This document shows positions 1-16,638 of a stretch of DNA of 20,000 bases, piece by piece. The position numbers were made by a program, and so were the translations under genes. Source of the stretch: an uncultured virus (IMG/VR IMGVR_UViG_3300021197_001384) (taxonomy: Duplodnaviria > Heunggongvirae > Uroviricota > Caudoviricetes); the IMG/VR virus record IMGVR_UViG_3300021197_001384; one strand, written 5' to 3'. The notes under the pieces are model-generated. The model was not told the DNA's origin, ran no database searches, and saw only the letters and a program-made list of their open reading frames with translations. Positions within the stretch are counted from its first letter, which is position 1. Every line of letters begins with the position of its first letter.

Positions 1-1
1 T

Positions 2-133
2 GCGACGATCCACATGATGGTCCTACGCAATCCAGATGCCGATGCCCGTGCGGTGAGCAATGCCGAGGCTGAGATCAAGCGGATGGCGAAGATGGCCGAT
101 GCTTACTCCAAGCTTGTAAAGGAGGGCAAATAA
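2..133 (+). CDS. 3' end of a small hypothetical early protein (partial, enters from the left edge)
   Basis: Open frame ...ATIHMMVLRNPDADARAVSNAEAEIKRMAKMADAYSKLVKEGK, TAA at 131-133, next ATG 1 nt later. Confidence 0.6.
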   Translation, partial: ATIHMMVLRNPDADARAVSNAEAEIKRMAKMADAYSKLVKEGK

Positions 134-134
134 G

Positions 135-293
135 ATGCCTGAGAACAACCGCACCCTGACCTTTGAACTGACCGACTGTGATCACTGCAAAGCCTACGCT
201 GAACTGGTCCGCAGCTGCACCGACGCTGGCCTGCCGTTCAAGATCTGGAACGTTGGCACGGCGGCCATCATCAAAATCGGGGAGGGCTACTAA
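135..293 (+). CDS. small hypothetical protein (52 aa) with a CxxC motif
   Basis: Not in the ORF track. Reads MPENNRTLTFELTDCDHCKAYAELVRSCTDAGLPFKIWNVGTAAIIKIGEGY*; GGAGG upstream; fills the gap between neighbours exactly. Confidence 0.65.
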   Translation: MPENNRTLTFELTDCDHCKAYAELVRSCTDAGLPFKIWNVGTAAIIKIGEGY

Positions 294-294
294 G

Positions 295-537
295 ATGATC
301 AGAACGATTGACGTATTGGTTCCGAACCCCACCAACCCAGACGGTGATGACATCGTGCTGATGGCTGACGTAGAAGTGATTCGTGAGCGTGTTACGGCCC
401 CCTGCCATACAAGCTGGGTGGAGGGTCATGTGGAGATCCTGAGCGTGCTCGACCACGCTGAGGACGATGTGACCAAGTGGGCCATCGAGCAACACGCAGA
501 CGACATCGTCCACGCAGCATTGGAGGCCGGACTATGA
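295..537 (+). CDS. hypothetical early protein (80 aa)
   Basis: Track ORF 178..537 with start moved to ATG 295 (MIRTIDVLV...), which follows GGAGGG and the upstream TAA. Confidence 0.7.
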   Translation: MIRTIDVLVPNPTNPDGDDIVLMADVEVIRERVTAPCHTSWVEGHVEILSVLDHAEDDVTKWAIEQHADDIVHAALEAGL

Positions 538-755
538 ACTGGGGCACCGAATATCTGCTCCACCATCTGGGCAAGGCTACGGCCACCCTGCGTGACGTCC
601 CTCGGGGCACTCCGAGGCATCGCAAGAGCATGTTCCTGCAGGCGATGGTCTCCCACTCCATGTGGCTGCAGGAGTCCACTGGATCTGGCAATCGGGCCAA
701 GCGCAGGCTGCAGCATGACCGCTGGCTGATGATGAACCGCGAGCTGTATGGCTGA
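534..755 (+). CDS. hypothetical early protein (73 aa, basic)
   Basis: ATGA overlap with the previous stop; GGAGG upstream; MNWGTEYLLHHLGK... Confidence 0.65.
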   Translation: MNWGTEYLLHHLGKATATLRDVPRGTPRHRKSMFLQAMVSHSMWLQESTGSGNRAKRRLQHDRWLMMNRELYG

Positions 756-799
756 GATCCTCACCGAGCTGACCTTCGGGTCGGCTCCATGAGCACCTC
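754..799 (+). ncRNA. unidentified structured hairpin motif, copy 1 (CC/CA internal loop, UUCG tetraloop)
   Basis: Lower stem 754-763/790-799 (2 mismatches), internal loop CC 764-765 / CA 788-789, 9-bp upper stem 766-774/779-787 with one G-U pair, loop TTCG. Confidence 0.6.
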
Positions 800-842
800 T
801 GCTCGAAACCAAAACAACTGTAAATCGAAAGTATCAAAAATG
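783..842 (+). repeat. 60-nt intergenic direct repeat, copy 1, ending in the next start codon
   Basis: Matches 1125-1184 at 58 of 60 positions: GGCTCCA[T/A]GAGCACCTC[T/C]GCTCGAAACCAAAACAACTGTAAATCGAAAGTATCAAAAATG. Confidence 0.95.
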
Positions 843-1100
843 TCAGAAGAATCGAAATTCCTGTTCCTCGTTGCCACCGCAGATCAATGCTGGGGTCGGG
901 GCACCACACCGAAGGAAGCGGCAGGGAAGGCCATCGAGGCCGGTGCTCGCAAGGCGTCAGCGGCGTGCTGCTACGTCATCGTTGGGGCGAAAGATCCCGA
1001 AGAGGTCTGCGTAAACGATGACGGCTGGGTCTGCTGGCCCACTGGGACCGATGACCACATGTTCCGCGTCAAGCGGGTCAGTGCGCTGCTGGGTTGGTGA
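840..1100 (+). CDS. hypothetical early protein (86 aa)
   Basis: Start set at the ATG that ends the repeated leader (MSEESKFLFLVATADQCWGRG...). Confidence 0.75.
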   Translation: MSEESKFLFLVATADQCWGRGTTPKEAAGKAIEAGARKASAACCYVIVGAKDPEEVCVNDDGWVCWPTGTDDHMFRVKRVSALLGW

Positions 1101-1141
1101 TGCTCTCCGAGCCCAGTGACAGTGGGCTCCAAGAGCACCTC
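1097..1141 (+). ncRNA. unidentified structured hairpin motif, copy 2
   Basis: Lower stem 1097-1106/1132-1141 (2 mismatches), CC 1107-1108 / CA 1130-1131 internal loop, upper stem GAGCCCA/TGGGCTC; compensatory changes relative to copy 1. Confidence 0.6.
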
Positions 1142-1184
1142 CGCTCGAAACCAAAACAACTGTAAATCGAAAGTATCAAAAATG
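1125..1184 (+). repeat. 60-nt intergenic direct repeat, copy 2
   Basis: Same sequence as 783-842 apart from two substitutions. Confidence 0.95.
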
Positions 1185-2015
1185 ATTAATAACTTAGAAT
1201 CCTACGCACCTGCAGCCATGACCACTTTTGCCGCTCCTGAGCGCAGTGATCGGTATGCCCATCTGACCACCAGTGACGTGGTCGATGTGCTCGCGGCTGA
1301 TGGGTGGGCATTGAACCGAGCTACCCAGACCAGTGCTCGGAGTGATCGTGGCAAGCTGCATGGCAAGCATGTGTTGGACTTCCACCATCCTGAGCTGCCA
1401 GCGGTCAATGAGGAGTATCGGCCCCGTCTGGTGCTCCAGAACGCCTCGGATGGCACCAGTGCGGTTCGGATGTTCGCGGGGTTCTTCCGGTTCGTCTGTG
1501 CCAACGGAATGGTCAGTGGAGACGCTGCCATGAGCATGGTGGCACGCCATACTGGCAAGGGGCTGCAGGAGGCGGTCGTGACTGGAGCGGCTGAGATCCG
1601 TGGCCGGATGGACATGATGCAAGACCGTATCAGCCGCTGGGGCGCCACCGAGATCAACGCCATCGATGGCATCGAGTTCGCCAAAGCGGCCTGCAAGGTG
1701 CGGTGGCCTAAGGCTGAGATGGTTGTCGGTCGTGAGGGCCTCTACGACTTCCAAGACCACTCCGGTCGCGCCATCGATGTTGTTGGTGCCCTCCGCACCC
1801 GTCGTCGCGCTGACGACTCCCACGACCTCTGGTCCGTATTTAACCGGATCCAAGAGGCAGTCACCAAGGGATTCGTCAATCAAGCCACCATCCGAGATGG
1901 CTACCGCGACATCCGGTCTACCCGTCGCGTCAGCAGCGCGATCCAAGATCTCAAGATCAACCGCGAGCTGTGGAACGTAGCCGAAGAAGTGGCCGTGGCC
2001 TACGGTGTGAACTGA
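1182..2015 (+). CDS. DUF932/DUF945 family protein
   Basis: Family-like motifs SDRYAHLTT, LQNASDGTSA, AGFFRFVCANGMV, RRRADDSHDLWSVFNRIQE, LKINRELW. Start at the ATG ending repeat copy 2. Confidence 0.88.
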   Translation: MINNLESYAPAAMTTFAAPERSDRYAHLTTSDVVDVLAADGWALNRATQTSARSDRGKLHGKHVLDFHHPELPAVNEEYRPRLVLQNASDGTSAVRMFAGFFRFVCANGMVSGDAAMSMVARHTGKGLQEAVVTGAAEIRGRMDMMQDRISRWGATEINAIDGIEFAKAACKVRWPKAEMVVGREGLYDFQDHSGRAIDVVGALRTRRRADDSHDLWSVFNRIQEAVTKGFVNQATIRDGYRDIRSTRRVSSAIQDLKINRELWNVAEEVAVAYGVN

Positions 2016-2075
2016 GTCGAAACACCCTGCGGGGTGTCTGCGGAAACTGACCAACCCGCACTGATGAGACGGTCG
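2016..2075 (+). ncRNA. type II hammerhead ribozyme with loop I / 3' tail pseudoknot; predicted cleavage after C2038 (GUC)
   Basis: GTC-GAAA-CACCC TGCG GGGTG-TC-TGCGG(loop)CCGCA-CTGATGA-GAC. All core nucleotides present; stems I, II and III pair perfectly; loop TGACC 2048-2052 pairs with tail GGTCG 2071-2075. Confidence 0.93.
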
Positions 2076-2097
2076 TAACAACAACTGTAATCCAAAA

Positions 2098-2565
2098 ATG
2101 AAAATTAATAAGTCCCTTAATAAAACCGAACAACGTCTTCTCGACTTCGTGACAACGGCAATATCAACGCATCGCCAGCGCCCAGCCTTCCCGCTTAGCG
2201 ACTTGGTCGCCTCATTCAAGGTCGACAATCGCCTTCCGACGCAGTGCCAAGATCTCGGCCTCGTGGAAAGGGTTCGCGGTATTGGCTATGTTTGGCGAAC
2301 CGACGATCCAGTGAAGGCGTTCAACGCGATTTGCGAGCTTCGTAAAAAGGAGGCGCGACAAAAGCGAGCGCCGGATCAACAGACGCAAACGGTCTTTACG
2401 GAAGCGACGACGACCGCTGACGCTGACGCTGATCAGCAAGGGCCGGATCTTCGCACGCTTGAGACTCAAATCATGGCCATACATGAGCGAATCAGCGACC
2501 TCGAAAACACGCTGCTCGACGCTGTTGTCGAGCTCACGAACCAAGTCATCGAGATCAAAAAATGA
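2098..2565 (+). CDS. hypothetical protein, possible winged-helix N-terminus and coiled-coil C-terminus
   Basis: 155-aa ORF after an A-rich leader; heptad-like C-terminus LRTLETQIMAIHERISDLENTL. The domain guess is inference. Confidence 0.7.
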   Translation: MKINKSLNKTEQRLLDFVTTAISTHRQRPAFPLSDLVASFKVDNRLPTQCQDLGLVERVRGIGYVWRTDDPVKAFNAICELRKKEARQKRAPDQQTQTVFTEATTTADADADQQGPDLRTLETQIMAIHERISDLENTLLDAVVELTNQVIEIKK

Positions 2566-2741
2566 AAACCTACTTCCATCAAGCCCACTACGCGCTCAGA
2601 AGCGCCCTTTGCAGCGCATTCTACGCCCTTTCCATGTGGTCGGGGCGTCAGGCTGCCAAAAACTGGCGCAAGGCCGAGAAAGCAGCTTTGGCTGAGACCA
2701 ATGCCTACCGTCAGCACAAGGAGGTCAGTCGTCATGAGTGA
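2562..2741 (+). CDS. small hypothetical protein (59 aa)
   Basis: Not in the track. MKTYFHQAHYALRSALCSAFYALSMWSGRQAAKNWRKAEKAALAETNAYRQHKEVSRHE*; ATGA overlap upstream and 8-nt overlap downstream. Confidence 0.6.
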   Translation: MKTYFHQAHYALRSALCSAFYALSMWSGRQAAKNWRKAEKAALAETNAYRQHKEVSRHE

Positions 2742-2922
2742 CGTCACGAATTATGATGTCATCGTAGCGATGGACAAGTTTGGTGGGGGCTTCGTGAAAG
2801 CCTTGGCCGGAGCTGCCCTACGTGCAGACAGTCGCAACCTCGGCCGGATCAAGCGAGCGTTCCCCGATTATTGGGAGCAATACACCATCTTAGCCGGTCT
2901 GGACAAGGAGGTCTGGCGATGA
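2734..2922 (+). CDS. conserved small phage early protein (62 aa)
   Basis: AAGGAGG upstream of ATG 2734; the pattern GGGFVKALAGAALRADSRNLGRIKRAFPDYW resembles a recurrent small hypothetical phage family (recollection, unverified). Confidence 0.75.
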   Translation: MSDVTNYDVIVAMDKFGGGFVKALAGAALRADSRNLGRIKRAFPDYWEQYTILAGLDKEVWR

Positions 2923-3299
2923 GTGCCTTGAAGCCCCGCAAGCGTGGCCGTCCCTTTGGGACATCCAAGCCCGAGCAACGCAAGACGCTCAGGCGGATGT
3001 GGCTTTCCCCCCGGGCTGAGGCTGCAGTGTCCGTCCAGCAGGAAATGCTGCGTGCCAGCCTGCGGGTGAGGGCGAGCTTCGGTCAGGCTTTTGAGCTGAT
3101 CGCCATCGCGCAAAGCGAAGGGACCACTCCGCTGGATGTGATGCGCGGTTTGATAAAGAAGTATGGCCGAAAGCAGATGACTGTGCTGAAATATCTAAAT
3201 CGACTCAACGATGACTTAGTGGAGCCCGAGGAAGATTCCGATGAGGCGCCGCTGACGAGTGAAGAGAAAATCAATTTCGAGGATAACGGGTCACTCTGA
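2919..3299 (+). CDS. putative DNA-binding protein with AT-hook-like motif
   Basis: ATGA overlap, AAGGAGG upstream; N-terminal KPRKRGRPFG and acidic C-terminus. Confidence 0.65.
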   Translation: MSALKPRKRGRPFGTSKPEQRKTLRRMWLSPRAEAAVSVQQEMLRASLRVRASFGQAFELIAIAQSEGTTPLDVMRGLIKKYGRKQMTVLKYLNRLNDDLVEPEEDSDEAPLTSEEKINFEDNGSL

Positions 3300-3339
3300 T
3301 TCGCCCTCAAAACCAAAGACCAAAAAGAAAGATAAAAAA

Positions 3340-4032
3340 ATGAGCTTAATCGCTAAAGAATCCGGAGGTTCCGCCTCCTTTGATCCAGTTGCCGCAGGAA
3401 TGCACCCAGCCCGATGCGTCGGTGTGGTGGATCTGGGCACTCAAGAAAGTTACGACAAGGCATTTGCGCCGAAGCGCCAAGTGTTGATCACATGGGAGAT
3501 CCCATCAGAGCGCATCGACATCGATGAGGACGGCAAGACCGTGTCCAAACCGAGGTTCATCTCCAACACCTACACGCTGTCGCTGAACGGAATGTCGAAC
3601 CTGCGCAAGACGCTCGATAGCTGGCGTGGTCGGGCGTTCACGGCCGAGGAGTTGGAAGGCTGGGATCTGTTCAACATCCTTTCGGCGCCCTGCCTGTTGA
3701 ACGTGACGCACAAGTCGAGCAAAGATGGGCAGAAGACCTACGCCAACGTGACCTCGGTGAACCCGTTGCCGAAGGGCATGGACTGCGGCCAGCAGGAATC
3801 GGATACGATGAGTTGGTCGATTGATGACCAGCCTGACTGGAAGAGCACTGCGCTGGAACTGCCGACGAACGTGCCTGAGTGGGTCAGTAAGAAGATCGCG
3901 CAGAGCGAGGAATACGTGCAAAGCCATCTGCCGACCGAAGCTCGCAAGAAGGAGCCCAATCACCTGCAGGACGCCAAGCCTGCCTTCGATGTGAGCACCG
4001 GAAGCGACGACGAGGACGAGCCGCCCTTCTGA
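3340..4032 (+). CDS. putative ssDNA-binding protein (OB-fold-like, acidic tail)
   Basis: Start after an A-rich leader; motifs HPARCVGVVDLGTQ and SNLRKTLDSWRGRAF; C-terminus DDEDEPPF mimics the SSB tail. Confidence 0.7.
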   Translation: MSLIAKESGGSASFDPVAAGMHPARCVGVVDLGTQESYDKAFAPKRQVLITWEIPSERIDIDEDGKTVSKPRFISNTYTLSLNGMSNLRKTLDSWRGRAFTAEELEGWDLFNILSAPCLLNVTHKSSKDGQKTYANVTSVNPLPKGMDCGQQESDTMSWSIDDQPDWKSTALELPTNVPEWVSKKIAQSEEYVQSHLPTEARKKEPNHLQDAKPAFDVSTGSDDEDEPPF

Positions 4033-4055
4033 TCTCGTCTGATCCCTGAACCAAC

Positions 4056-4087
4056 AGCCCCGCCTCCTTGGATGGAAGCGGGGTTTT
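4056..4087 (+). terminator. terminator-like hairpin between the SSB-like gene and the HNH gene
   Basis: AGCCCCGC-C-TCC/GGA-A-GCGGGGTT stem with only four T's in total, so probably leaky. Confidence 0.5.
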
Positions 4088-4105
4088 CGGGTGATGAATA
4101 ACAAT

Positions 4106-4645
4106 ATGAAATCAGAAAACGAAGAAGTCTTCCGGCCCATTGCTGGCTATGAAGATCTCTACCTAATCTCCTGCTCCGGTCGAGTTCAATCGTTACCGAG
4201 ATGGGTCGTCTGCAATGGCGTTATGGCCCTCAGGGATGGACGGATCTTGAAGGGAAGCTCACATCCTGATCGATACAGGATAGTCGGCCTCTGGCGTGAC
4301 GGAGTTAGGTGGACAAGTTACATTCACCGACTGGTGGCCCAAGCGTTCCTGAGTAATCCCGATGGCAAGCCGCAAGTGAACCACATCGATGGAGACAAGG
4401 CCAATAACCGGATGGAAAATCTGGAGTGGGTCACTGACCTTGAGAATAAGCGACATGCCATGGAGACTGGGCTGACAATAAAGGGCGAGGACCACGGTAA
4501 CTCCAAGCTCACGGAGGAGGAGGTCCTTTACATTCGGAGCAATCCCGACGGGCTCACTCAGCGTGAGCTGGCCACCAAGCTGGAAGTCTCCCAATCCGTG
4601 ATCTGCAACATCCAGCTCGGCAAGACATGGGGGCACGTTCAATGA
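4106..4645 (+). CDS. NUMOD4-HNH homing endonuclease with C-terminal HTH
   Basis: NUMOD4 (EVFRPIAGYEDLYLISCSGRVQS), HNH (IHRLVAQAF...VNHIDGDKANNRMENLEW), HTH (TQRELATKLEVSQSVICNI). Start could also be 4091 or 4094. Confidence 0.93.
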   Translation: MKSENEEVFRPIAGYEDLYLISCSGRVQSLPRWVVCNGVMALRDGRILKGSSHPDRYRIVGLWRDGVRWTSYIHRLVAQAFLSNPDGKPQVNHIDGDKANNRMENLEWVTDLENKRHAMETGLTIKGEDHGNSKLTEEEVLYIRSNPDGLTQRELATKLEVSQSVICNIQLGKTWGHVQ

Positions 4646-4866
4646 GCCGAGCGCATCTCGCCGCCGTCACCCTGACCGTCACTTTCTGTGGCATCGTGCC
4701 GAAGGGAGTCACGGCAGGTGGTCCCAAGGCTTGGCTCAAGCAGCGGGTCCGGCACATGAATTTGGAGATCGAAGGCTTCGTCCAAGTGGACCGAGTAGCC
4801 GAGATCTCCGTCAACCCAGAGCCGGTCGAACTGCCACCAGCTCATCAACTCAACCCAGAAAAATAA
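4642..4866 (+). CDS. hypothetical protein (74 aa)
   Basis: ATGA overlap with the HNH stop; MSRAHLAAVTLTVTF... Confidence 0.6.
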   Translation: MSRAHLAAVTLTVTFCGIVPKGVTAGGPKAWLKQRVRHMNLEIEGFVQVDRVAEISVNPEPVELPPAHQLNPEK

Positions 4867-4871
4867 GCACC

Positions 4872-5381
4872 ATGCACATCATCAAAGTCAGTCATTCCCG
4901 AAAGAGCATCTCCGTCACCTTCACCGTCGAAGACGAGAAGCGAGTCATCGTCAGTCACGACAACCCATTGCCGTCCTTCGCGAAGGCGTTCCACCCATTG
5001 CCCAAGGTAGCCTGTGGGCTGCTGGAGCTTCCGGATTCCTACGCCGATGGCATGAAGATCACTGGCATCCAGATCCAGACCAAGGGTGGGAATGAGCACG
5101 TCATCCTGACTGGCACCAAGGATCTCCCTGATTCCAGTCAGCTCTTCAGGTTCTCAACTCCTCCCCGCTTGCTTGAGCAGCCGGTGGAGGAGGGGAAATA
5201 CTCTCCCCCGATCAGCGACAAGCAGGCTGACCTGATTGCCGATGCGCTCCATGAGGTGGCCAAGTATGCTCGCGGCGAGCGAGCGCAGGGCCAACTGGAT
5301 CTGGAGGACGACGACGACAAGTCGGAGGCCACCAAGGCTGCTGCTGATTCCGAAGGCCAAGAGGTCATGGCAGGAGTCTGA
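4872..5381 (+). CDS. hypothetical phage protein (169 aa)
   Basis: Start at ATG 4872 (MHIIKVSHSRK...), 5 nt after the upstream stop; C-terminal GERAQGQLDL plus acidic tail. Confidence 0.75.
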   Translation: MHIIKVSHSRKSISVTFTVEDEKRVIVSHDNPLPSFAKAFHPLPKVACGLLELPDSYADGMKITGIQIQTKGGNEHVILTGTKDLPDSSQLFRFSTPPRLLEQPVEEGKYSPPISDKQADLIADALHEVAKYARGERAQGQLDLEDDDDKSEATKAAADSEGQEVMAGV

Positions 5382-5447
5382 GTTCAGTGCCTGCCGGTGG
5401 GCCTAAGCACCGGCACCAATTTCACCCAAACAACTGAAAGGAAAATC

Positions 5448-5915
5448 ATGAAGACAACGATAGGAGAACATATGGCCAAGGCCGTGGTCGCAGACTACGC
5501 CAAGGGCAAGCGATACAACGAGGCGCAGCTGGCCAAGAGACTGGACGAGCTGGTCATGCAATACCGAGCGGTGGAGGAGGCCCCCAAGGTAAAGAGCATC
5601 TGGGACGTGAGCTCTCTCGACATCTACAACGCCTACCCTCGCAGGGTAGCGAAGACGGCCGCACTGAAGGCGATTGGCAAGGCGATGATGGGCTGGCCTC
5701 ATGATATGCTGCTGGAGCGCACTGAGGCGTTCAAGGAAGCCACGGACAAGTGGCCTGAGGGGGACCGCAAGTTCATCCCGCACCCGAGCACGTGGTTCAA
5801 CAACGAGGGGTTCGACGAGGATCCCAAGGAGTGGGTCCGCAAGAGCGACGAGCAACTGAAGCAGGAGCGCCGTGAGGCCAAGGCGAGTGAACCCACCAAC
5901 TACGAGGTCTTCTGA
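5448..5915 (+). CDS. replication initiator/replisome organiser-like protein
   Basis: YNAYPRRVAKTAALKA and FIPHPSTWFNNEGFDED motifs typical of phage initiator C-terminal domains; directly upstream of a DnaC-like ATPase. Confidence 0.75.
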   Translation: MKTTIGEHMAKAVVADYAKGKRYNEAQLAKRLDELVMQYRAVEEAPKVKSIWDVSSLDIYNAYPRRVAKTAALKAIGKAMMGWPHDMLLERTEAFKEATDKWPEGDRKFIPHPSTWFNNEGFDEDPKEWVRKSDEQLKQERREAKASEPTNYEVF

Positions 5916-6721
5916 TGAATATCCCTGACAACGTGATTCCCTTTGCTGACATTGGATTGGATGAGTTCGGGGGCATGAGCCCCCAGCAGATCGGAACGAT
6001 CCCAGCCGATGAGAACTGGTCCCCCCTGAAGGAGGAGATCGAGGTGACCTGCCGAGTCTGCGAGCGGGAGAAGTTCCGAGCGGTTCGATTTCTTGCCGGT
6101 AAGATGGCCTGCCCTAGCTGCTGCGATGCCCATGAGCTGGAGGATTTGAAGAACCAGTGCAGGGTGGCGTGGGAGCGGCTTGCTCCGTCCATGTTTCGGG
6201 AGACCGATGTGAAGCATCCTGACTTCCCGAAGGGGATCTGGAAGGAGCTGAAGGCCAGTTGGGATCTCAACGAGAGTTTGGTGCTCTACGGCCCGACTGG
6301 TGCAGCGAAGACCCGGGTGGCCATGCTGCTGCTGCAGTGGGCAATGTTCAAAGGAAAGACCGTGGACGCGATCTGGCCGGAAGAACTGGTGGAGTTTGCC
6401 AAGGGCCGTGATCGTCTGAAGAAGATCCAGAGCCTTGGTTCCAACAACGTGCTGCTGCTCGATGATGCTCTGCTGACTGGTGCGGCCGATGAACGGGTGG
6501 CCAGCTTCTGTAAGGACATTATAGATTTTTCCCAGCGCCATGGGAACTCCATCATCATCACCACGCAGGTGGGTGGCGAAGCCTACAAGCAAGCTAGTGA
6601 CAAGTGGGAGAACGCCACGAAGGCCGACAGGGAGCGCATTGAGGCCCTGCTCAGGCGCATTCGGCAGGTGGGCAGAGTGATCCCCTTCGTGCAGCCTGAC
6701 AAAGACGAGGAGAGCTTCTAA
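5915..6721 (+). CDS. DnaC/IstB-like AAA+ ATPase (helicase loader)
   Basis: CxxC...CxxC at the N-terminus, Walker A GPTGAAKT, Walker B VLLLDD, IIITTQ sensor region; TGATG overlap with the initiator. Confidence 0.82.
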   Translation: MNIPDNVIPFADIGLDEFGGMSPQQIGTIPADENWSPLKEEIEVTCRVCEREKFRAVRFLAGKMACPSCCDAHELEDLKNQCRVAWERLAPSMFRETDVKHPDFPKGIWKELKASWDLNESLVLYGPTGAAKTRVAMLLLQWAMFKGKTVDAIWPEELVEFAKGRDRLKKIQSLGSNNVLLLDDALLTGAADERVASFCKDIIDFSQRHGNSIIITTQVGGEAYKQASDKWENATKADRERIEALLRRIRQVGRVIPFVQPDKDEESF

Positions 6722-6722
6722 T

Positions 6723-6995
6723 ATGAAAATAAAGGAGATTCAGCATGAACCTCTGCGCTACTGGGCATCGAGCAGCACCCGCAACATGACCTACGTGGTC
6801 GATCTTTCGGAGAACGAGGGCAATGGGTCTTGCTCCTGCGCTGACTTCATCACCCGAAGGAACCAAGCCATCCAGCAGGGGGAGGAGTTGTTCACCCGCA
6901 AGACCAGCTGCAAGCACCTGCTTGCGGTGCGCAAGCACTTCCTGAAGACCACCCTGCGCGAGATGGCGAGGATCATCAACAAGGGAGGACGGTGA
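6723..6995 (+). CDS. SWIM zinc-finger protein
   Basis: YVVDL...CSCADF...CKH pattern (CxC-xn-CxH). Confidence 0.8.
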   Translation: MKIKEIQHEPLRYWASSSTRNMTYVVDLSENEGNGSCSCADFITRRNQAIQQGEELFTRKTSCKHLLAVRKHFLKTTLREMARIINKGGR

Positions 6996-7348
6996 CCTAC
7001 GATCACGATGGGAAGCTGATCCGGTTTGACCTGAACGGGAAGCGGGTGAGCGGCACGGTGGTGAAAACCCATGACCGTCGCCATGTCACCGTCCGTGGCA
7101 GGTCAGGCAAGACCGTGAAGGTGGACATGCTCGACCAGCATGGCGTGGTTGCCTTGCCCAGTGGGTTGGAGGTCACCACCATTTGGAATGAGGATCACCC
7201 ACCGAATGGAGTGCCTGCTGATCGGGCTGAGTTTCATCGTGCTGTCGATGATCCTCCTGCGCCTGCTGTGGCTCCTGCTCCAACTCTAAAGCCTGCGCGT
7301 CCTGCTCAGGCACCAACAACAACAACTGAGCAAATGATATTCTTATGA
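6992..7348 (+). CDS. hypothetical protein with Pro/Ala-rich C-terminus
   Basis: GTGA overlap, GGAGG upstream, 118 aa. Confidence 0.6.
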   Translation: MTYDHDGKLIRFDLNGKRVSGTVVKTHDRRHVTVRGRSGKTVKVDMLDQHGVVALPSGLEVTTIWNEDHPPNGVPADRAEFHRAVDDPPAPAVAPAPTLKPARPAQAPTTTTEQMIFL

Positions 7349-7833
7349 ATCACACCAACACACAGGCCAAGATCCTGAGCCTCGACTTAGCAACCACCAC
7401 GGGGTGGGCCTTCATTGCCAACGGTGTCGTGGATCATGGAGCCCAGAGCTTCAAGCTCGGCACCAAGAAGGCAGACCCGAAGCATGCTGGGCTGCCCTTC
7501 GCCCAGTTCGACCACTGGATTGCCAATCGCATCAGGGACTACAAGCCTGAGCTGATCGTCTACGAGGAAGTCCGCAGGTGGATGAGCAGCAGTGCTGCAT
7601 GGGCCTTCTGTGGCTTCCGTGCCACGATGCTAATGCATGCTGCTCGAAACGGCATCGAGTGCATCGGCTACAGTCCGACCACTATCAAGAAGTTCGCCAC
7701 TGGTAGCGGTGCTGCGAACAAGAAGAAGATGATCGAGACGGCCAAGATGCGTTGGCCTGACGAGCAGTTCGCTTCGGACGATGCGGTGGATGCGTTGTTC
7801 CTGCTGCATCTCCATCTGGCAGGAGCCCCATAA
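7345..7833 (+). CDS. RuvC-like Holliday junction resolvase
   Basis: ILSLDLATTTGWA, IVYEE, PTTIKKFATGSGAANK and DDAVDAL give the RuvC acidic catalytic pattern. Confidence 0.88.
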   Translation: MNHTNTQAKILSLDLATTTGWAFIANGVVDHGAQSFKLGTKKADPKHAGLPFAQFDHWIANRIRDYKPELIVYEEVRRWMSSSAAWAFCGFRATMLMHAARNGIECIGYSPTTIKKFATGSGAANKKKMIETAKMRWPDEQFASDDAVDALFLLHLHLAGAP

Positions 7834-7985
7834 GCCGTGGTCCTGTCCATTTCTAGGCCATTTCCAGCCCATACTGGGGTCTAGGTATAGGCTGGACACT
7901 AGAACCGCCTTAATTTACGTCCGTTACCCAGAGAAGGCTATAGCGAGGAAACGTCCGAGTAGAATACGACGCTAACGGGTTTTCT

Positions 7986-8026
7986 ACCCCCGTCACCTGT
8001 TACCGCAGGGGCGGGGGTTTTTCTTT
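7986..8026 (+). terminator. rho-independent terminator ending the + strand arm
   Basis: ACCCCCGTCACCTG/CAGGGGCGGGGGT stem followed by TTTTCTTT, at the convergence of the two arms. Confidence 0.85.
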
Positions 8027-8029
8027 GGA

Positions 8030-8197
8030 TTACTTCGAATCCTTGGGAGGATTCGGCTCAGGTTGGGGAACTTTGGAATCGGTCACCACATTGGTCAGCA
8101 CTTCCCGCGCAGCGGAAAAGGCTTGGTGATCTTGGCCGGAACCAACGAACTTTATTTGAACTTGAGCGAGGATTTGTAGTGCTTCTTGAGGGCTCAT
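8030..8197 (-). CDS. small hypothetical protein (55 aa)
   Basis: Not in the track. MSPQEALQILAQVQIKFVGSGQDHQAFSAAREVLTNVVTDSKVPQPEPNPPKDSK*; stops next to the terminator hairpin. Confidence 0.6.
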   Translation of the reverse strand: MSPQEALQILAQVQIKFVGSGQDHQAFSAAREVLTNVVTDSKVPQPEPNPPKDSK

Positions 8198-8242
8198 CCA
8201 AAACGTATGAACAATCCCACAGAATTAAGCAACTCGGATCCG

Positions 8243-8335
8243 TTAGGGCTGAGCTTCAAGCGCAGCGATGGACGTGGAATCGCATTGATCGCCGTGGTTG
8301 TCAGATGCGACGACGAATCGGCGTGGGGATTTCAT
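8243..8335 (-). pseudogene. truncated metallophosphoesterase N-terminus fused to a short unrelated tail (30 aa)
   Basis: MKSPRRFVVASDNHGDQCDSTSIAALEAQP*. FVVASDNHGD matches motif I (DxH) of calcineurin-like phosphoesterases; later motifs are absent. Confidence 0.55.
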
Positions 8336-8347
8336 AAGCGGTGACGG

Positions 8348-8572
8348 TCAGCCGAGACGCTGCCAGATCCAATGACCGACGACAGTTGCGCAAGCAGCGA
8401 TCCCAGAAACGACGCCGCGCTGACGCCATTTCTCATTTTCGAGCTTAGTCACGCGACCGTTAGTGATCTTCGCTTGCTCTTCCGTGCGCTCCGTTGTCGC
8501 GCTGATCGTGTCGAGCCTTTGCAAGATGCGAGAGAACATTGCGTCGGTGCTGTTCGGGTCGTAATCGGACAT
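8348..8572 (-). CDS. holin-like membrane protein (coiled coil plus C-terminal hydrophobic helix)
   Basis: MSDYDPNSTDAMFSRILQRLD...TNGRVTKLE...GVVSGIAACATVVGHWIW; lysis-module position. Confidence 0.6.
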   Translation of the reverse strand: MSDYDPNSTDAMFSRILQRLDTISATTERTEEQAKITNGRVTKLENEKWRQRGVVSGIAACATVVGHWIWQRLG

Positions 8573-8580
8573 CGTGCGGA

Positions 8581-8856
8581 TCAATCTTTTTTGATGGTTT
8601 CAAGCTCCGCACCTTTGTAATTCGCAGTTCGCGAAAAGCCTAAGATGGTTGTGGTGTGCGTGAGCGAGTCGGCCTTTCGGACTACACTGCCGTCGTCCTG
8701 CGTGGTTTTCTCGATCCCGGTTGCGTGGATTTCCGACGAGAAGCCCGGCGCTGCAATGGTTTGATGCACCTCCTCGGCTGCGTAGCGCGGAACGGCAGAG
8801 CATCCGGCGAACGTGATCGCTGAAAGGGTAATGATAATGCTTTGGATTGCTTTCAT
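8581..8856 (-). CDS. lipoprotein (possible spanin component)
   Basis: Signal peptide MKAIQSIIITLSAIT followed by lipobox FAGC. Confidence 0.7.
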   Translation of the reverse strand: MKAIQSIIITLSAITFAGCSAVPRYAAEEVHQTIAAPGFSSEIHATGIEKTTQDDGSVVRKADSLTHTTTILGFSRTANYKGAELETIKKD

Positions 8857-8863
8857 AATATGA

Positions 8864-9253
8864 TTATTTGTCACCGCGTTTGAATTTCGGACCGCCAACT
8901 ACAACAGCGGCGACCATTATTTTGCGACGAATGCGCGAGACGCCCAGCGCTTCCATTGCTTCGCCGAAGATTGATGCAGCTTTCCGATAGTCGGTTGTTT
9001 TGGGCGACTCATCGCAAAGCCAGTCGTGCACGATTGCTGCCTTTCCGTGCCGCCCGACCGGAGAAACGATGCGATGAAAGAAGCGAGGCACGCTCGCAAA
9101 GTCGGTTCGATAGCCTGCTGGCACGGTGATGATCCTGCCGCCAGACGACTCAAAGCGAATCGCGTGGATCAGCTCGAACGGTCGTTCATCGAGGTCCAAA
9201 TTGTGGACCTTGAGATTGTAACTTCCAACGAACTTATCCACGCGGTCTTGCAT
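8864..9253 (-). CDS. DUF1353 family protein
   Basis: ITVPAGYRTDFASVPR and AAIVHDWLC motifs. Confidence 0.88.
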   Translation of the reverse strand: MQDRVDKFVGSYNLKVHNLDLDERPFELIHAIRFESSGGRIITVPAGYRTDFASVPRFFHRIVSPVGRHGKAAIVHDWLCDESPKTTDYRKAASIFGEAMEALGVSRIRRKIMVAAVVVGGPKFKRGDK

Positions 9254-9292
9254 GACTTATTTGGTTTCGGATTTTGGTTTCGGGGTTTGAAA

Positions 9293-11569
9293 TTAGTTAT
9301 TTTCCAATGCCTCAAGACGGGCCGTCAGTTCCTGTAGTGCACCGACGAGCAGAGGCACTAGCTTGGATTGGTCGATTCCTTGGTATTCTGGCACCGACCT
9401 AGTGCCCATGACGGCAGGAGTGACTTCGTTTCCGTCGTCATCTAATACCGCTGGAGTGACCTCGTATTCCTCGTCACGCATTGCATTTTTTTCGCCGGAT
9501 ATTGCTTCCGGAACGACCTCTTGAACTTCGTGAGCGATAAATCCATCCACGATCCTCTTGTCATCAGAGATGAAGTTGAAGCGGCTGGGCTTGAGCTTGC
9601 CGATGCGTTGCAGCGAATCCGACATTGGCACCACGTTTTCCTTCAAACGATAGTCCGAAGAGGTGTTGTATGCCGTGGAGGTCTGGTTGGTGGTAATCGT
9701 GCCGCAGGTCTGCGTGGCACTTATAAAGATGGCTTGGGTCTGCACCCCAGCCCCCATCTTCCCGAAGCGGACGTATTTGCTGGCGTTATCCCACGCAAAC
9801 CCACCGACTCCAACGGTGGGCATTGTCATTCCGCTGAAGATGGCGTCGCCGCCAGATTTAAGCGTCATTCTCTCGGTTCGAGTGCCTGCTGAGTTCTCTA
9901 CAAAGGTTAGGTTATTTTGTGATCCTCCTCCACTTGGGTCTTGGAGCGAGGTCTCCCACCAATAACTTGGGTTAGTGGTGTAAAGACTTATGAAGTTCCG
10001 ATAGTTCTCAGAACCGCTTCCTCCTTGGAATCGGGCCAATTCGGTAGCACCAGATACAGAACCTTTAAATACGTGTAGGGGTGCCGCCGGTGCCGTGATC
10101 CCAATGCCGACCTCGCCAGTAGCCAAAACTCGCATTCTCTCGACACCATCCTTGTCGTTAAGCTCAAGGATTCGATCACCCGAATTGCTACCAGCACTAA
10201 TTTCTAATCCGTTGCCGCTGGCTGTTGAGTTTGAAATCAGTCCGACAAAATCGGTGGTCGCGCCACTTACGGTGAACAACCGTGAAGGTGTAGACGTCCC
10301 CACGCCGACGTTGCCGCTCGTCGCGAGCGTCATTTGCGGAAACGAATTGTTCGTTCCGAAGATCAGCGGATGGTTAGTGGTAGTCCCGATAGCAAACGAG
10401 TTGGTCAGCGTGGTGCTGCCGTAAATGATGCCGTTGACCGTTCCGTCGTTGACCGCGATGCCGCCATTGGTGGCAGTTTGGACGCTTAGCTTGGTGCTCG
10501 GTCCCGTCGTCCCCACGCCGACGTTGCCTGCGGCGGTGATTCGCATGGCTTCACTGTCAAGTGAGCCGCCGCCTCCACCTGTGCGAAACGACATGGACCC
10601 AGTCCCAGCCGTTGCGCCCCATGAACGAATCCGGAAGTCGTTATTATTAAAATCGAGACCGCCCGCACTTGTTTGATTAAGAGAAACTCCTCCCCGTGCA
10701 AGGACAGGACCATTTACATCGAGAGTTGACTTCCCCGTTCCGGCTGGGGCAGGTGCCGTCAATCCGATGCCGAGGCCAGTGGAGGTGAATGTAGCGACAT
10801 CGCCAGTTCCGACGACTCCAACCTTGGTGCTACTCTGCGTGAGATTGAGTATGCGACCTGTGCCGACGTGGTCGTAAATCGAAAGACCAGCCGACCCAGC
10901 GTAAAGGCGGGTTTCGTTTGAAACGTCTAGACCAAAAAGACGCCCGAAAAAATCAACTTGTGTGCTTGCACTCAGACTCGTCGCCGCCACCGTGCTCGGC
11001 GTCGTCGCCCCAATCGTCGTGCCGTCAATCGTCCCGCCGTTAATGTCTGCCGTGTCAGCAACCAGCGAGTCGATGTTCGCCGTGCCGTCGAGGTAGAGGT
11101 TGCGCCACTCGTGGCCCGTGCGACCAAGGTCGTAGGTGTTGTCGGTGGCTGGCGTAAACTCAGATGCAATCCGAGCGTTGAACGTCACCGTGTCACTATT
11201 GCTGCTACCGAGAGTCGTGTTGTTGTTAATCGACAATGCATCTGCCGTAAGCAGGTTGGCATCACTGACTGTAACCCCAGAATTTTGTATGACCTTGCCG
11301 GTTGTGCTATCAAAACGAGCAACAGCATTATCCGTAGATGACGCTGGTCCAACTACATCACCAGCACCATTAGACGTCCATTCCACATCTGTAGCCGTGC
11401 CATTCAAAGAAAGCACTTTATTTGCATTTCCCGTATAATCAGGAAGCAAATTAACACGGGCATCAGACGCATTGTCAGCCCCTGTTCCACCGTTAACAAC
11501 GGGCAATACGCCAGAAATATTTTCCAGGGAGTCTGGTGTATCCAGAATCAGGGTCTTAAAAACGTCCAT
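9293..11569 (-). CDS. tail fibre with C-terminal intramolecular chaperone (peptidase S74)
   Basis: Gly/Thr/Ser-rich; repeated GNVG[VI]GT.xP units; SDYRLKENV...GFIAHEVQEVVPEA...IDQSKLVPLLVGALQEL chaperone domain. Confidence 0.92.
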   Translation of the reverse strand: MDVFKTLILDTPDSLENISGVLPVVNGGTGADNASDARVNLLPDYTGNANKVLSLNGTATDVEWTSNGAGDVVGPASSTDNAVARFDSTTGKVIQNSGVTVSDANLLTADALSINNNTTLGSSNSDTVTFNARIASEFTPATDNTYDLGRTGHEWRNLYLDGTANIDSLVADTADINGGTIDGTTIGATTPSTVAATSLSASTQVDFFGRLFGLDVSNETRLYAGSAGLSIYDHVGTGRILNLTQSSTKVGVVGTGDVATFTSTGLGIGLTAPAPAGTGKSTLDVNGPVLARGGVSLNQTSAGGLDFNNNDFRIRSWGATAGTGSMSFRTGGGGGSLDSEAMRITAAGNVGVGTTGPSTKLSVQTATNGGIAVNDGTVNGIIYGSTTLTNSFAIGTTTNHPLIFGTNNSFPQMTLATSGNVGVGTSTPSRLFTVSGATTDFVGLISNSTASGNGLEISAGSNSGDRILELNDKDGVERMRVLATGEVGIGITAPAAPLHVFKGSVSGATELARFQGGSGSENYRNFISLYTTNPSYWWETSLQDPSGGGSQNNLTFVENSAGTRTERMTLKSGGDAIFSGMTMPTVGVGGFAWDNASKYVRFGKMGAGVQTQAIFISATQTCGTITTNQTSTAYNTSSDYRLKENVVPMSDSLQRIGKLKPSRFNFISDDKRIVDGFIAHEVQEVVPEAISGEKNAMRDEEYEVTPAVLDDDGNEVTPAVMGTRSVPEYQGIDQSKLVPLLVGALQELTARLEALENN

Positions 11570-11570
11570 T

Positions 11571-11897
11571 TTACAAATAGTTCAACTCTTGCATTTCAAG
11601 CACAGCATCCGTGCTTGCTTCCCGAATGGCCTTAACCTTGGAAACCATTTCCCGTGTCCAATAAACAGAGCTTCCTGGCGGCATACGGTAACCCAATGAA
11701 GCGGTAGGATCAGTGGTGCCATCCATCGTTACACGAATCGCAGCATCATTAACCTGAACAAGCACGTGCGTCGTGCCAGAGTTTAGGGTCCAATCCAAGA
11801 CCTGCTCCGCCGTAGAACTAATTGTGTTCTGTTGGTGAGTGGTGGTGTTCTGGGGGATTGCCTGAGAAGGCGTATTAACAATTCTTGCGTTAGGCAT
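11571..11897 (-). CDS. small virion structural protein (108 aa), paralogue of 11902-12216
   Basis: Start at ATG 11897 (MPNARIVN...); aligns by eye with the upstream gene. Confidence 0.7.
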   Translation of the reverse strand: MPNARIVNTPSQAIPQNTTTHQQNTISSTAEQVLDWTLNSGTTHVLVQVNDAAIRVTMDGTTDPTASLGYRMPPGSSVYWTREMVSKVKAIREASTDAVLEMQELNYL

Positions 11898-11901
11898 GAG
11901 A

Positions 11902-12216
11902 TTAAACAGTAAAGGGTGATGCCTGCACGGCTGCGTCCGTTCCGCCAGCACGAATCATAATTGCGCTATCTGCTTGTCGGGCCGACCAGAAGCCTTTCCA
12001 TCCAGACTCAAACTTGTGTCCGTTTGACGCAGAAGGAACGGAACGATCAAAGGTAACCATAATATCGGCACCTTGAACATCAACATAAACAAACTTGGTG
12101 TTTTCGTCATACCAAGTTGACGTAAACTCAATAGGAACCGTAGAAACCGTCAAACGCTCATCTGTGCCGCCTTCGGTGGGGACAGGATAAAGATTAACTG
12201 AAAAGGTATTAGGCAT
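11902..12216 (-). CDS. small virion structural protein (104 aa)
   Basis: Beta-rich ORF tightly packed between the adaptor and tail fibre genes. Confidence 0.7.
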   Translation of the reverse strand: MPNTFSVNLYPVPTEGGTDERLTVSTVPIEFTSTWYDENTKFVYVDVQGADIMVTFDRSVPSASNGHKFESGWKGFWSARQADSAIMIRAGGTDAAVQASPFTV

Positions 12217-12220
12217 AGTA

Positions 12221-13078
12221 TTAACGTGATTGGCGAGAAACGTAAGTTGAAATTCGACGATATAAAGCGTTATTGTTTCTCTGGGTTTCTGCTTTATCCA
12301 ATTCTATCAAAAGGTATTGCTGCGCCACATTCTCTTCTGCAATGGCCTTGTCAATCTGACCGTCCATACGCAAGAAGTCTGCATATGCTGCGTGCGCTAT
12401 ATATTCAAAAAACTCCGACGGGATGTTGGTAGATGAATCCGAATATGGGCCTTCCCACTTTTTCAAATAACCCACCCAAAAGCCGCCAAGGTCCGTATAG
12501 TTATTAATTACATTAGCACCATCACTACCAACCCAAAACTCATACTCAATAGCAGAGTTAATGTTTAGTGGATTGCTGCTCCAAATACGATTAAAGCTAT
12601 CAATCTCAGGAACGCTATTAGCAATCACGCTCCCAGATCCCGTGTAAGTTTCAACACCAGTTCCCGTTGCAAGATTATATGTAAACGTATCGTTATTGAT
12701 TGATCCTGTGCTTACTGATACAACCTGATAGCTACCATTTGGATCAACAGAACCAGTTAATCCAGAAACAGTAACATACATTCCCTCTACAAAATCAACA
12801 GACGCGGTGCATCTAATTGTAACTAATTTATCTACACGGGAAGCAGCAGCAATGTTTTTGGAAGCAGGGGTAAATGTCGTAGAAATAACATTACCAACCG
12901 CTGGCCGTGCTTGTGCCCCAACAATATAACGCGGCCAAACTTTGTTCTGTCGATAAGCCTGATAAGCTCTACGATTAACAAAGTTAAGGATGCTTCCTTT
13001 TTCGCTAGGGTTAAAGTTGCTTACCCCAGAAAGCGAGCTAATTAAGGAGTAGAGATCACTATACGTCCGATTGGTCAT
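12221..13078 (-). CDS. putative head-tail adaptor / tail tubular protein with inserted beta domain
   Basis: Helical N-terminus (TYSDLYSLI...FVNRRAYQAY...WP) and C-terminus (IPSEFFEYIAHAAYADFLR) typical of podovirus adaptors; position after the capsid gene. Confidence 0.65.
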   Translation of the reverse strand: MTNRTYSDLYSLISSLSGVSNFNPSEKGSILNFVNRRAYQAYRQNKVWPRYIVGAQARPAVGNVISTTFTPASKNIAAASRVDKLVTIRCTASVDFVEGMYVTVSGLTGSVDPNGSYQVVSVSTGSINNDTFTYNLATGTGVETYTGSGSVIANSVPEIDSFNRIWSSNPLNINSAIEYEFWVGSDGANVINNYTDLGGFWVGYLKKWEGPYSDSSTNIPSEFFEYIAHAAYADFLRMDGQIDKAIAEENVAQQYLLIELDKAETQRNNNALYRRISTYVSRQSR

Positions 13079-13383
13079 ATCTTGTTAGGAGAAAGATGTG
13101 GGAACTTCTTTTGGTAATACTTCATAAACTCCTTAGAATGAACCTCTTTATGCCCATATTTTTGCTGCATACGGAAAAACTCCCACTCGGGGATCACACC
13201 AATACAGCGACCAAGCCCAGGCACTTCCTTTTGATTCACCAAATCCTTTGCCTGTTCAGCCGCTTGCGCTTCCTTTGACCGTTCAATTTCTTTCTTAAAC
13301 TCTAGCCCAGTAGTAAGCTCACGCATCAAAGCGCGATTAACTTCTCCGTCGTGATACTTAGGGAATGACGTAATTAAGTGCAT
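13075..13383 (-). CDS. small hypothetical protein downstream of the capsid gene
   Basis: 102-aa ORF overlapping the adaptor start; IP...W...F...P pattern. Confidence 0.75.
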   Translation of the reverse strand: MHLITSFPKYHDGEVNRALMRELTTGLEFKKEIERSKEAQAAEQAKDLVNQKEVPGLGRCIGVIPEWEFFRMQQKYGHKEVHSKEFMKYYQKKFPHLSPNKI

Positions 13384-13390
13384 AATAATA

Positions 13391-13412
13391 GGGCTACCCC
13401 GAAGGATAGCCC
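13391..13412 (-). terminator. UUCG hairpin after the major capsid gene (attenuator or stabiliser)
   Basis: Minus strand GGGCTATCC-TTCG-GGGTAGCCC followed by TATTATT, a weak U tract. Confidence 0.65.
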
Positions 13413-13442
13413 CATTATAACATGTAAGTCTAGTAGTTAGAT

Positions 13443-14426
13443 TTACGCAATAGCGGTAATCTTACCGTGAGCACCAGGGTGCTTGACCAACAGGGACAAG
13501 GTCGTGTCAACGTAACCACGCTCACCGCCACCTTGATTCGGAAGGCGGGTCGAACCAAGACCGATCAACTCGGCAACGCCGTAGTAGTCAGGATTAATGA
13601 GGTAACCCGTGTCTTTGTTCGTCGTGTCAGGGGAGCAGTCAGGGTTCATGTTAACAATGCTCACCATACCGTGATCAGACTCATACATCTCAACAGAGAG
13701 TTTGATGGTCTTGGAATCAGCAGATTGGGTAACCTGACGGTAAACCGCGTTGGTCGATCCAGAGGTGCGAGCATAGTCAGCAATAACCCGACGAAGAGCA
13801 GTGTCAGCAACCAAGGTAAGGTTGTTGGTGCTGCCAGTCACTCGGTAGATGGACGTGATAAGGTCGTTAAAGCCGCCTTCGGTCAGAGCACCCGTGCTGT
13901 GGATGGAATCCGCAGGGGTGCGGTAATCGGCAGGAACGTCAGTCGGACCAGCCGAATCAATCCAGTCACCAAGGCCGCGCAGACCATAAACAGTGCCAGC
14001 ACCATCTTCAGCCGTGCGATCATTGGTGGAGCAGAGGGTGGCCTCCACGTCACGCTTCAGTTCACGAGCAGACTTAGCTTCGGCCTCAGCAATCTTAGCC
14101 GGTCCAACGGACTCAACGGCATCTTGCAGGTCCGAAACCATGAAGTCACGGCGGAACTTTTGCACATAGTTGCCGAGACGAGCGCGGCCACTAAACTTGT
14201 CGGTGAAGGAGGAAACGTCAGAACCCTCGGCAACACCCGTGGTAACAGGAGCAGCCAGCGAATCAACCGTCCACTCAACGAAGGTGGCGGTTGCCTTGCT
14301 TTTGGGAGCAGACGAAAGAACAGGAGTTTCCTCGGGAGCGAGGATGGTCAGGATGTCGGTGAGGTCTTCACGATTGGAGACGCCGGACCCTGGATTGGTA
14401 GTATCGTAGGTATTAGAAAAGGCCAT
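13443..14426 (-). CDS. major capsid protein (DUF5309/SU10-like)
   Basis: NREDLTDIL...PEETP...EWTVDSL...EG.D...RLGNYVQ...ELKRDVE signature; follows the scaffold gene. Confidence 0.92.
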   Translation of the reverse strand: MAFSNTYDTTNPGSGVSNREDLTDILTILAPEETPVLSSAPKSKATATFVEWTVDSLAAPVTTGVAEGSDVSSFTDKFSGRARLGNYVQKFRRDFMVSDLQDAVESVGPAKIAEAEAKSARELKRDVEATLCSTNDRTAEDGAGTVYGLRGLGDWIDSAGPTDVPADYRTPADSIHSTGALTEGGFNDLITSIYRVTGSTNNLTLVADTALRRVIADYARTSGSTNAVYRQVTQSADSKTIKLSVEMYESDHGMVSIVNMNPDCSPDTTNKDTGYLINPDYYGVAELIGLGSTRLPNQGGGERGYVDTTLSLLVKHPGAHGKITAIA

Positions 14427-14441
14427 GATTATAAAGTAAAA

Positions 14442-15572: not shown

Positions 15573-15619
15573 AGTTATCAACGCTCTCTTTATACGCCTG
15601 AGCGATTTGCGATAATGAC

Positions 15620-15649
15620 ATTATAACAGTCATTTTTATTGCTTTACAA
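15620..15649 (-). promoter_or_regulatory. sigma70-like promoter for scaffold/capsid genes
   Basis: Minus strand TTGTAA-18 nt-TATAAT with extended -10 (TGtTATAAT) and an AT-rich upstream tract. Confidence 0.7.
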
Positions 15650-15671
15650 AAAAACAAAAAAATAATACTTT
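15643..15671 (+). promoter_or_regulatory. possible divergent sigma70-like promoter for the antisense ORF
   Basis: TTTACA (15643-15648)-17 nt-TACTTT (15666-15671); ATG at 15677. Confidence 0.4.
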
Positions 15672-15676
15672 TATTT

Positions 15677-16637: not shown

Positions 16638-16638
16638 A

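Follow-up and report, generated by a model that had tools for sequence, protein, structure and literature searches.

Gene organization of the locus

The window, that is, the whole 20-kb stretch analyzed here, which comes from an uncultured marine phage, carries on its + strand, from position 1 to about 8600, a DUF932 gene, a gene for a 155-aa protein, small ORFs and genes for an HNH endonuclease, a replication initiator, a DnaC-like loader and a RuvC-like resolvase, and on its - strand capsid (SU10 type), tail-fibre and lysozyme genes. The G+C content of the + strand replication module (1-8600) is 56.9%, compared to 48.1% in the - strand structural module (8800-20000), a gap which is large for one phage and suggests a mosaic origin. 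The HNH endonuclease (4091-4645, + strand), inside the replication module, has a NUMOD4 motif and may be a homing endonuclease.

The element studied here is a hammerhead ribozyme which lies between the DUF932 gene and the gene for the 155-aa protein (Table 1). The true start of the DUF932 gene is probably ATG 1182 and not the GTG at 1116: a database copy of the protein (P0001) has 277 aa with 100% identity, and ATG 1182 is preceded by an A-rich leader. Judged from its homologue in L001, the downstream frame is a real gene. Its product gave no match in Pfam or PHROG, and the winged-helix leads obtained for it were weak and under the bar for assignment (feature score 0.83; TM 0.30-0.43 to winged-helix regulators). 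A terminator scan gave no terminator-like site on the + strand near the ribozyme, and a promoter scan, using a consensus which may not be that of the host, gave no sigma-70-like site on the + strand in 1-2728. This absence of terminators and promoters around the ribozyme fits a polycistronic transcript.

Table 1. Coordinates of the hammerhead ribozyme, its parts and the two flanking cistrons in the window
Feature	Position	Strand	Remark
DUF932 gene (upstream cistron)	1182-2015	+	Pfam PF06067, E 1.3e-25; ORF open from GTG 1116
TGA stop of the DUF932 gene, adjoining the ribozyme	2013-2015	+	A2015 is model position 1
Stem II, 5' strand GUC	2016-2018	+	Pairs with 2068-2070; C2018 is position 11.1; formed in the minimum free energy structure of the 60-mer
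Core G12 A13 A14 (GAAA is 2019-2022)	2019-2021	+	Aligned to the invariant GAA of RF02276 and R1
Stem III hairpin, A15.1-U16.1 (A2022-U2037) closing CACCC 2023-2027 / GGGUG 2032-2036	2022-2037	+	Loop UGCG 2028-2031
C17, predicted cleavage site	2038	+	Predicted scissile bond 2038/2039; from the position in the family alignment
Stem I hairpin UGCGG 2039-2043 / CCGCA 2056-2060	2039-2060	+	From sequence and folding
Loop I, 12 nt, AAACTGACCAAC (DNA) / AAACUGACCAAC (RNA)	2044-2055	+	Caps stem I
Pseudoknot, loop I strand UGACC	2048-2052	+	In covarying pseudoknot columns 71-75 of alignment A2
Core C3 U4 G5 A6 U7 G8 A9 (CUGAUGA)	2061-2067	+	Aligned to the invariant block of RF02276 and R1
Stem II, 3' strand GAC	2068-2070	+	G2068 is position 10.1; from sequence
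Pseudoknot, 3' tail strand GGUCG	2071-2075	+	Complementary to 2048-2052; no linker base after stem II
A-rich leader without Shine-Dalgarno motif, containing CAACTGTAA	2076-2097	+	22 nt, from ribozyme end to ATG 2098
Downstream cistron, 155 aa, no known family	2098-2565	+	60% identical homologue in L001

Three further features were noted in this region. The 9-mer CAACTGTAA occurs exactly three times on the + strand (815-823, 1157-1165 and 2082-2090). Two of these copies stand ahead of the ATGs at 1182 (DUF932 gene) and 2098 (155-aa gene), at distances of 16 and 25 nt; after each comes CAAAAATGA, and neither is accompanied by a Shine-Dalgarno motif. The 9-mer may be a shared leader or an operator; with one mismatch it has six copies, which is not above chance (35 of 200 shuffles). 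A 7-bp hairpin at 1109-1129 (+), GAGCCCA and TGGGCTC around the loop GTGACAG, is found just past the stop of the ORF at 789-1100; it is part of the 81-nt spacer that separates this ORF from the DUF932 gene and has no U tract after it. Finally, the - strand has a 344-aa open frame at 1194-2228, antisense to the ribozyme and to the full length of the DUF932 gene. It has no Pfam family and probably arose as a shadow of coding DNA rich in G+C.

Structure of the hammerhead ribozyme

All parts of a type II hammerhead are present at 2016-2075 of the + strand: the catalytic core is complete, and there are three helices and a pseudoknot of 5 bp. The conserved segments follow one another in the type II permutation (GAAA, GUC, CUGAUGA), stems I and III are capped by loops and stem II is open. 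The pseudoknot between loop I and the 3' tail comprises four Watson-Crick pairs and one U-G pair. Standard pairs adjoin the core in all three stems (G2068-C2018, U2039-A2060 and A2022-U2037); the Methods of PMC3088659, in the portion available, make standard pairs next to the core in all stems the rule for acceptance. The first-pass annotation had described an intact type II hammerhead at this site, starting right after the DUF932 TGA, ending 22 nt before the next ATG and closed by a pseudoknot of loop I with the 3' tail. Every coordinate of that description was correct to the base, and the core, the stems, the geometry and the covariance model R1 (below) agree with it.

When the 60-mer was folded alone, its minimum free energy structure was exactly the hammerhead three-way junction. 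The energy of this nested fold was no better than that of shuffled sequences (z -0.88 and -0.84), 41 of 200 shuffles folding equally well. The core pattern CGAAAC..GTC..CTGATGAG, which is found once in the window, did not occur in any of 200 dinucleotide shuffles. The pseudoknot by itself is weak evidence, since 728 of 20000 random 12-mers of the window (about 3.6%) give at least 5 pairs at that place.

Stems III and I are stable hairpins, and the segment could be read as two plain hairpins acting as an intercistronic stabilizer or terminator without catalysis. We consider this extremely improbable, since neither hairpin is followed by a U tract, the terminator scan was empty here on the + strand, and the intact 11-base core and the pseudoknot would be left unexplained.

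The tetranucleotide ACUG occurs three times around the ribozyme (+ strand): at the stop codon (2011-2014), in loop I (2046-2049) and in the leader (2084-2087). The pseudoknot tail can pair with any of these copies, and the predicted folds use the upstream or the downstream one, not that of loop I. In these models the alternative pairings could be competing structures or a coincidence.

Scores with covariance models

The first-pass annotation had named a search with the Rfam Hammerhead_II model as a check of the assignment. The match obtained covers the full length of the model, with an E-value of 0.0076 over the whole 20-kb window, but its score lies below the Rfam cut-off. At gathering thresholds the Rfam scan of the window therefore reported nothing; with reporting by E-value, RF02276 (Hammerhead_II) matched 2015-2078 over model positions 1-66 of 66 with 31.1 bits against a cut-off of 37, the gathering score being an operational cut-off and not a biological feature. 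The E-value was 7.7e-05 when 201 nt were searched. RF02276 was the best Rfam family in clan CL00010 and the sole ribozyme match, and the four other Rfam rows in the window (E 0.43 to 3.3) belong to unrelated families. What lowered the score was an insertion and a deletion of one position each near stem II, together with the loop; the core has no defect. Since the default threshold of Rfam misses this hammerhead, annotation pipelines undercount phage hammerheads of the pseudoknot subclass.

A pattern search of viral contigs for type II hammerheads gave at least 133 stretches; among those listed 115 instances were well formed, a number that takes in the window itself and overlaps of loci that are neighbours. 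The covariance model R1 was built from 19 aligned viral type II pseudoknot hammerheads, with the window left out. R1 scored the ribozyme site at 63.3 bits (E 2.6e-15, a rough value from a shortened calibration), the next best site in the 20 kb reaching 7.7 bits. Among the 112 matches of R1 in 99 viral loci and the window, the site ranked 21st. Both Rfam and R1 found one hammerhead copy only within the 20-kb window.

Comparison with the type II pseudoknot family

According to the accessible part of PMC3088659, type II hammerheads, their stabilizing pseudoknot, the mutational proof that this pseudoknot matters and the gene-flanking position in prophages were described in 2011, and the same portion of that paper documents in vitro activity and pseudoknot dependence for the class. 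As far as the available text of PMC3088659 and PMC6765202 goes, the class is located between genes in phages and its biological role is still open, a processing role having been suggested but not proven. The statement of the first-pass annotation that type II pseudoknot hammerheads occur between small phage genes with an open role matches these sources.

The pairing of the family was analyzed in alignment A2 (101 distinct rows, pseudoknot written in), which was fitted to the model and so leans towards the structure. In this alignment 95.3% of the cells were paired, compared to 63.9% in shuffled alignments and 24-43% with the partners slid, and the covariation score was 0.688 against 0.147 (0 of 500 shuffles). 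Double-sided changes were found at all five pseudoknot pairs. The stems and the pseudoknot of the window, as the first-pass annotation had drawn them, occupy covarying columns of the family alignment, and the position of the window's U-G wobble is U-G in 14 of the 101 rows.

Geometry was compared among 114 distinct hammerheads with a pseudoknot of at least 5 pairs. Stem I plus the 5' loop segment is 9 in the window and in 62 of the 114, stem I plus the 3' loop segment 8 (56 of 114) and stem II plus the spacer 3 (49 of 114). The values of the window are thus those of the modal or the second class, and the exact combination of six numbers is unique (1 of 114). The base that usually follows stem II is missing in the window, which amounts to a one-base deletion from the R1 consensus GaCAGGuC (GaC-A-GGuC). 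A pseudoknot that begins directly after stem II is common, occurring in 18 of 45 hammerheads. According to the part of PMC3088659 available, rates may fall by orders of magnitude when bases are inserted or deleted near the pseudoknot, so that the window ribozyme, which has no linker base, may be slow. By alignment and geometry the window hammerhead, sub-threshold in Rfam and without the linker base, is still inside the range of the family.

With RF02276 and the class of Perreault et al. (2011) the window hammerhead shares the permutation, the core, a 3-bp stem II, a pseudoknot of at least 4 bp after it and the location between phage genes; it differs in being one base shorter between stem II and pseudoknot and in falling below the Rfam cut-off. 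It is an ordinary example of the class described in 2011 and changes nothing that is known about hammerheads. The lineage of L110 and L136-L138 resembles it in having nearly the same loop I (AAACUGACCAAAG, compared to AAACUGACCAAC in the window), an identical stem II and identical pseudoknot letters. On the other hand, stems I and III of this lineage differ entirely yet pair, its pseudoknot has 6 bp and not 5, and its flanking genes are unrelated.

Relatives of the locus

Close relatives of the DUF932 protein are few (P0002, 90% and P0003, 74% identity), and a single-sequence search of viral contigs with this protein gave no relative. The DNA of 1116-2600 had no match by similarity among known phages. 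The closest named phage, C75C1, has a capsid protein 63% identical to that of the window, and no ribozyme match was found in it at E up to 1. Searching metagenomes for this stem I gave at least 125 stretches, and among the matches listed only the window's own contig, L185 (100%), was syntenic, synteny being defined as encoding any of the 15 window + strand proteins tested. Six sequencing runs carry 0.05-0.14 of the words of the stretch, with no RNA run among them.

Contigs from four sequencing runs were compared with the window at this locus. In a 1798-nt metagenome contig from run X1, 125 of the 129 bases of the ribozyme block 1959-2087 are identical. Elsewhere this contig follows 1200-1631 and 2570-3152, with 35 differences in each and 4 gaps in the second. 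In place of 1631-1959 it has 330 letters whose divergence prevents alignment, and in place of 2087-2570, which holds the 155-aa gene, 272 other letters. The ribozyme block is thus the best-kept part of X1, and the 155-aa gene was not kept. A contig from run X5 follows 1768-2017 with 10 differences, its last 11 letters being unlike the window; from these 11 letters at the contig end, X5 seems to be a variant without the ribozyme of the window. In L001 the 60% identical homologue of the 155-aa protein (2501-2947), the only one found, is encoded behind a different gene and has a similar A-rich leader, and neither Rfam nor R1 found a hammerhead ahead of it. On the evidence of these contigs, the position of the 155-aa gene is a variable slot behind the ribozyme.

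The absence of a hammerhead from L001 and C75C1, the sub-threshold Rfam score and the missing linker base speak for an inactive relic which no longer cuts, or of a chance look-alike which never did. This explanation is highly improbable, as there is no defect in the core or in the pairs adjacent to it, the independent model R1 gives 63.3 bits, the core pattern is absent from all 200 shuffles and the block is kept in X1 between diverged flanks.

The variable slot also bears on a wider role, in which the hammerhead is a portable junction element that marks a hot spot of gene-cassette exchange, its main value being that any incoming gene receives a defined, context-independent 5' end; in a variant of this role the conserved ribozyme sequence may itself be a recombination site. 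Three junction states agree with it, namely X1, with the block kept and the gene replaced, X5, which diverges at 2017/2018, and L001, with the gene but no ribozyme. Other contigs likewise have single small genes bordered by similar copies of a ribozyme (for example four in L082 and four in L088), and L110 and L136-L138 share loop I and pseudoknot letters with the window in spite of different stems and unrelated flanks. However, each state is represented by one contig, both of the relatives' contigs are short, and X5 contributes 11 letters at its end. Phages in general have mosaic junctions at their intergenic spacers, whether a ribozyme is there or not, and the same observations are compatible with plain processing, so that a junction role seems rather unlikely.

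DUF932 genes and the position of the stop codon

The association of hammerheads with DUF932 was examined from both sides. Among the upstream genes of other viral hammerheads none of 83 encodes DUF932 (73 of these genes belong to no Pfam family), and among the downstream genes there is one (L018). R1 applied to DUF932 loci with 1.2-kb flanks matched none of 80 viral and one of 80 genomic loci. A type II descriptor matched one of the 160 loci and nothing in 5 shuffles, while 28 of the 35 loci L100-L134, the positive control, were matched. These tests cover type II hammerheads (descriptor) and the pseudoknot subclass (R1). A literature search gave nothing that links DUF932 with hammerhead ribozymes. 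A fixed DUF932-hammerhead gene pair was rejected on these counts (1 of 160 other DUF932 loci, 0 of 83 upstream genes).

The single positive locus, L350 (2017-2101, from an Acidobacteriales MAG), has a DUF932 TAG overlapping stem II, the hammerhead, a GGAGAG ribosome-binding site and an ATG, and is thus like the window in its order of DUF932 stop codon, hammerhead and next gene. The two DUF932 proteins are only about 30% identical, and the L350 hammerhead, unlike that of the window, has a short loop I, no pseudoknot and the cleavage triplet CUC, with 20.9 bits in Rfam. Comparison of the two sequences indicates that the hammerheads were probably acquired independently.

Tight packing between genes is typical of the family. 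In 59 of 84 hammerheads the stop of the upstream gene falls between -2 and +4 nt relative to the model start, and in 25 of the 84 it overlaps model positions 1 and 2. On the other side, 61 of 96 have their start codon 8-21 nt beyond the end of the model, and the value of the window is 18. Since the stop codon of the window ends at model position 1, a ribosome terminating there could cover stem II, GAAA and part of stem III, and the ribozyme could be conditional, cutting only when DUF932 is not translated. If it were so, processing of the downstream message would be tied to upstream translation. The stop offsets of the family and the TAG of L350, which overlaps stem II after another DUF932 gene, are in agreement with such gating, and regulated cleavage of phage hammerheads is raised as a possibility in the accessible part of PMC3088659. 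The same packing is, on the other hand, equally expected from plain compaction of phage genomes, and the offsets are spread over 7 positions and do not keep one register; we regard gating by translation as doubtful. A similarly low probability is given to the combined proposal in which the ribozyme is the fixed edge of a cassette slot, staying in place while related phages swap the sequence directly behind it and supplying each new gene with the same clean 5' end and maybe homology for swaps, and its contact with the stop codon could gate cutting by translation.

Proposed function

We propose, with a probability of roughly 0.8, that 2016-2075 is a true type II hammerhead of the phage pseudoknot subclass, probably an active one, which cuts its own operon mRNA at 2038/2039 and thereby uncouples the two cistrons. 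Transcription across the ribozyme, cleavage after C2038, the chemistry of the ends and the effect on expression are inferred from the chemistry of the family and from the gene content, as is the early polycistronic mRNA of the first-pass annotation. The ribozyme would be transcribed as part of a + strand operon formed by DUF932, the 155-aa gene, the small ORFs and the HNH endonuclease, replication initiator, DnaC-like loader and RuvC genes. The three-way junction would fold, the pairing of UGACC (2048-2052) with GGUCG (2071-2075) holding stems I and II parallel, and the RNA would cleave itself between C2038 and U2039. The stem III hairpin, carrying a 2',3'-cyclic phosphate, would then form the end of the DUF932 message, 23 nt beyond the stop codon. 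The 5'-OH end of the downstream message would be paired from the first base onwards in stem I; the A-rich leader, which is unstructured, and the AUG at 2098 would come after this stem.

The predicted products were also folded. At the 3' end of the upstream product stem III formed a hairpin with one base protruding, and the downstream product had a 5'-terminal stem I and an open AUG region. In bacterial mRNA decay, 3' exonucleases are slowed by a hairpin at the 3' end, and 5'-end-dependent RNase E does not readily enter at a 5'-OH that is paired. A cut leaving a hairpin at one 3' end and a paired 5'-OH at the other end would therefore give both cistrons protected ends and independent fates. The likely effect is that the stability and translation of the two cistrons would be uncoupled, the ribozyme acting as a natural intercistronic insulator. 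Engineered insulators of the RiboJ type place a self-cleaving ribozyme before a cistron, giving it a fixed 5'-OH end and a hairpin and uncoupling its expression from upstream sequence. RiboJ is a synthetic device and offers only a functional analogy for the role proposed here.

For a class whose purpose in phages is open, according to the available part of PMC6765202, the window adds one more clean and correctly placed example. The locus with its three junction states is also a small natural test case of whether such ribozymes insulate genes that are swapped in.

The triple hammerheads associated with ardA in an Agrobacterium tumefaciens prophage, as presented in the accessible text of PMC3088659, are intercistronic like that of the window, implying a transcript cut into gene-length messages. 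The Agrobacterium tumefaciens hammerheads and those of many viral contigs form arrays, whereas the window has one copy in 20 kb. Arrays of 3 to 6 type II hammerheads, about 300-450 nt apart, were observed in the viral contigs L082, L088, L023/L024, L100, L016 and L053; each hammerhead of an array flanks one small gene of unknown family, and the copies within a contig are very alike.
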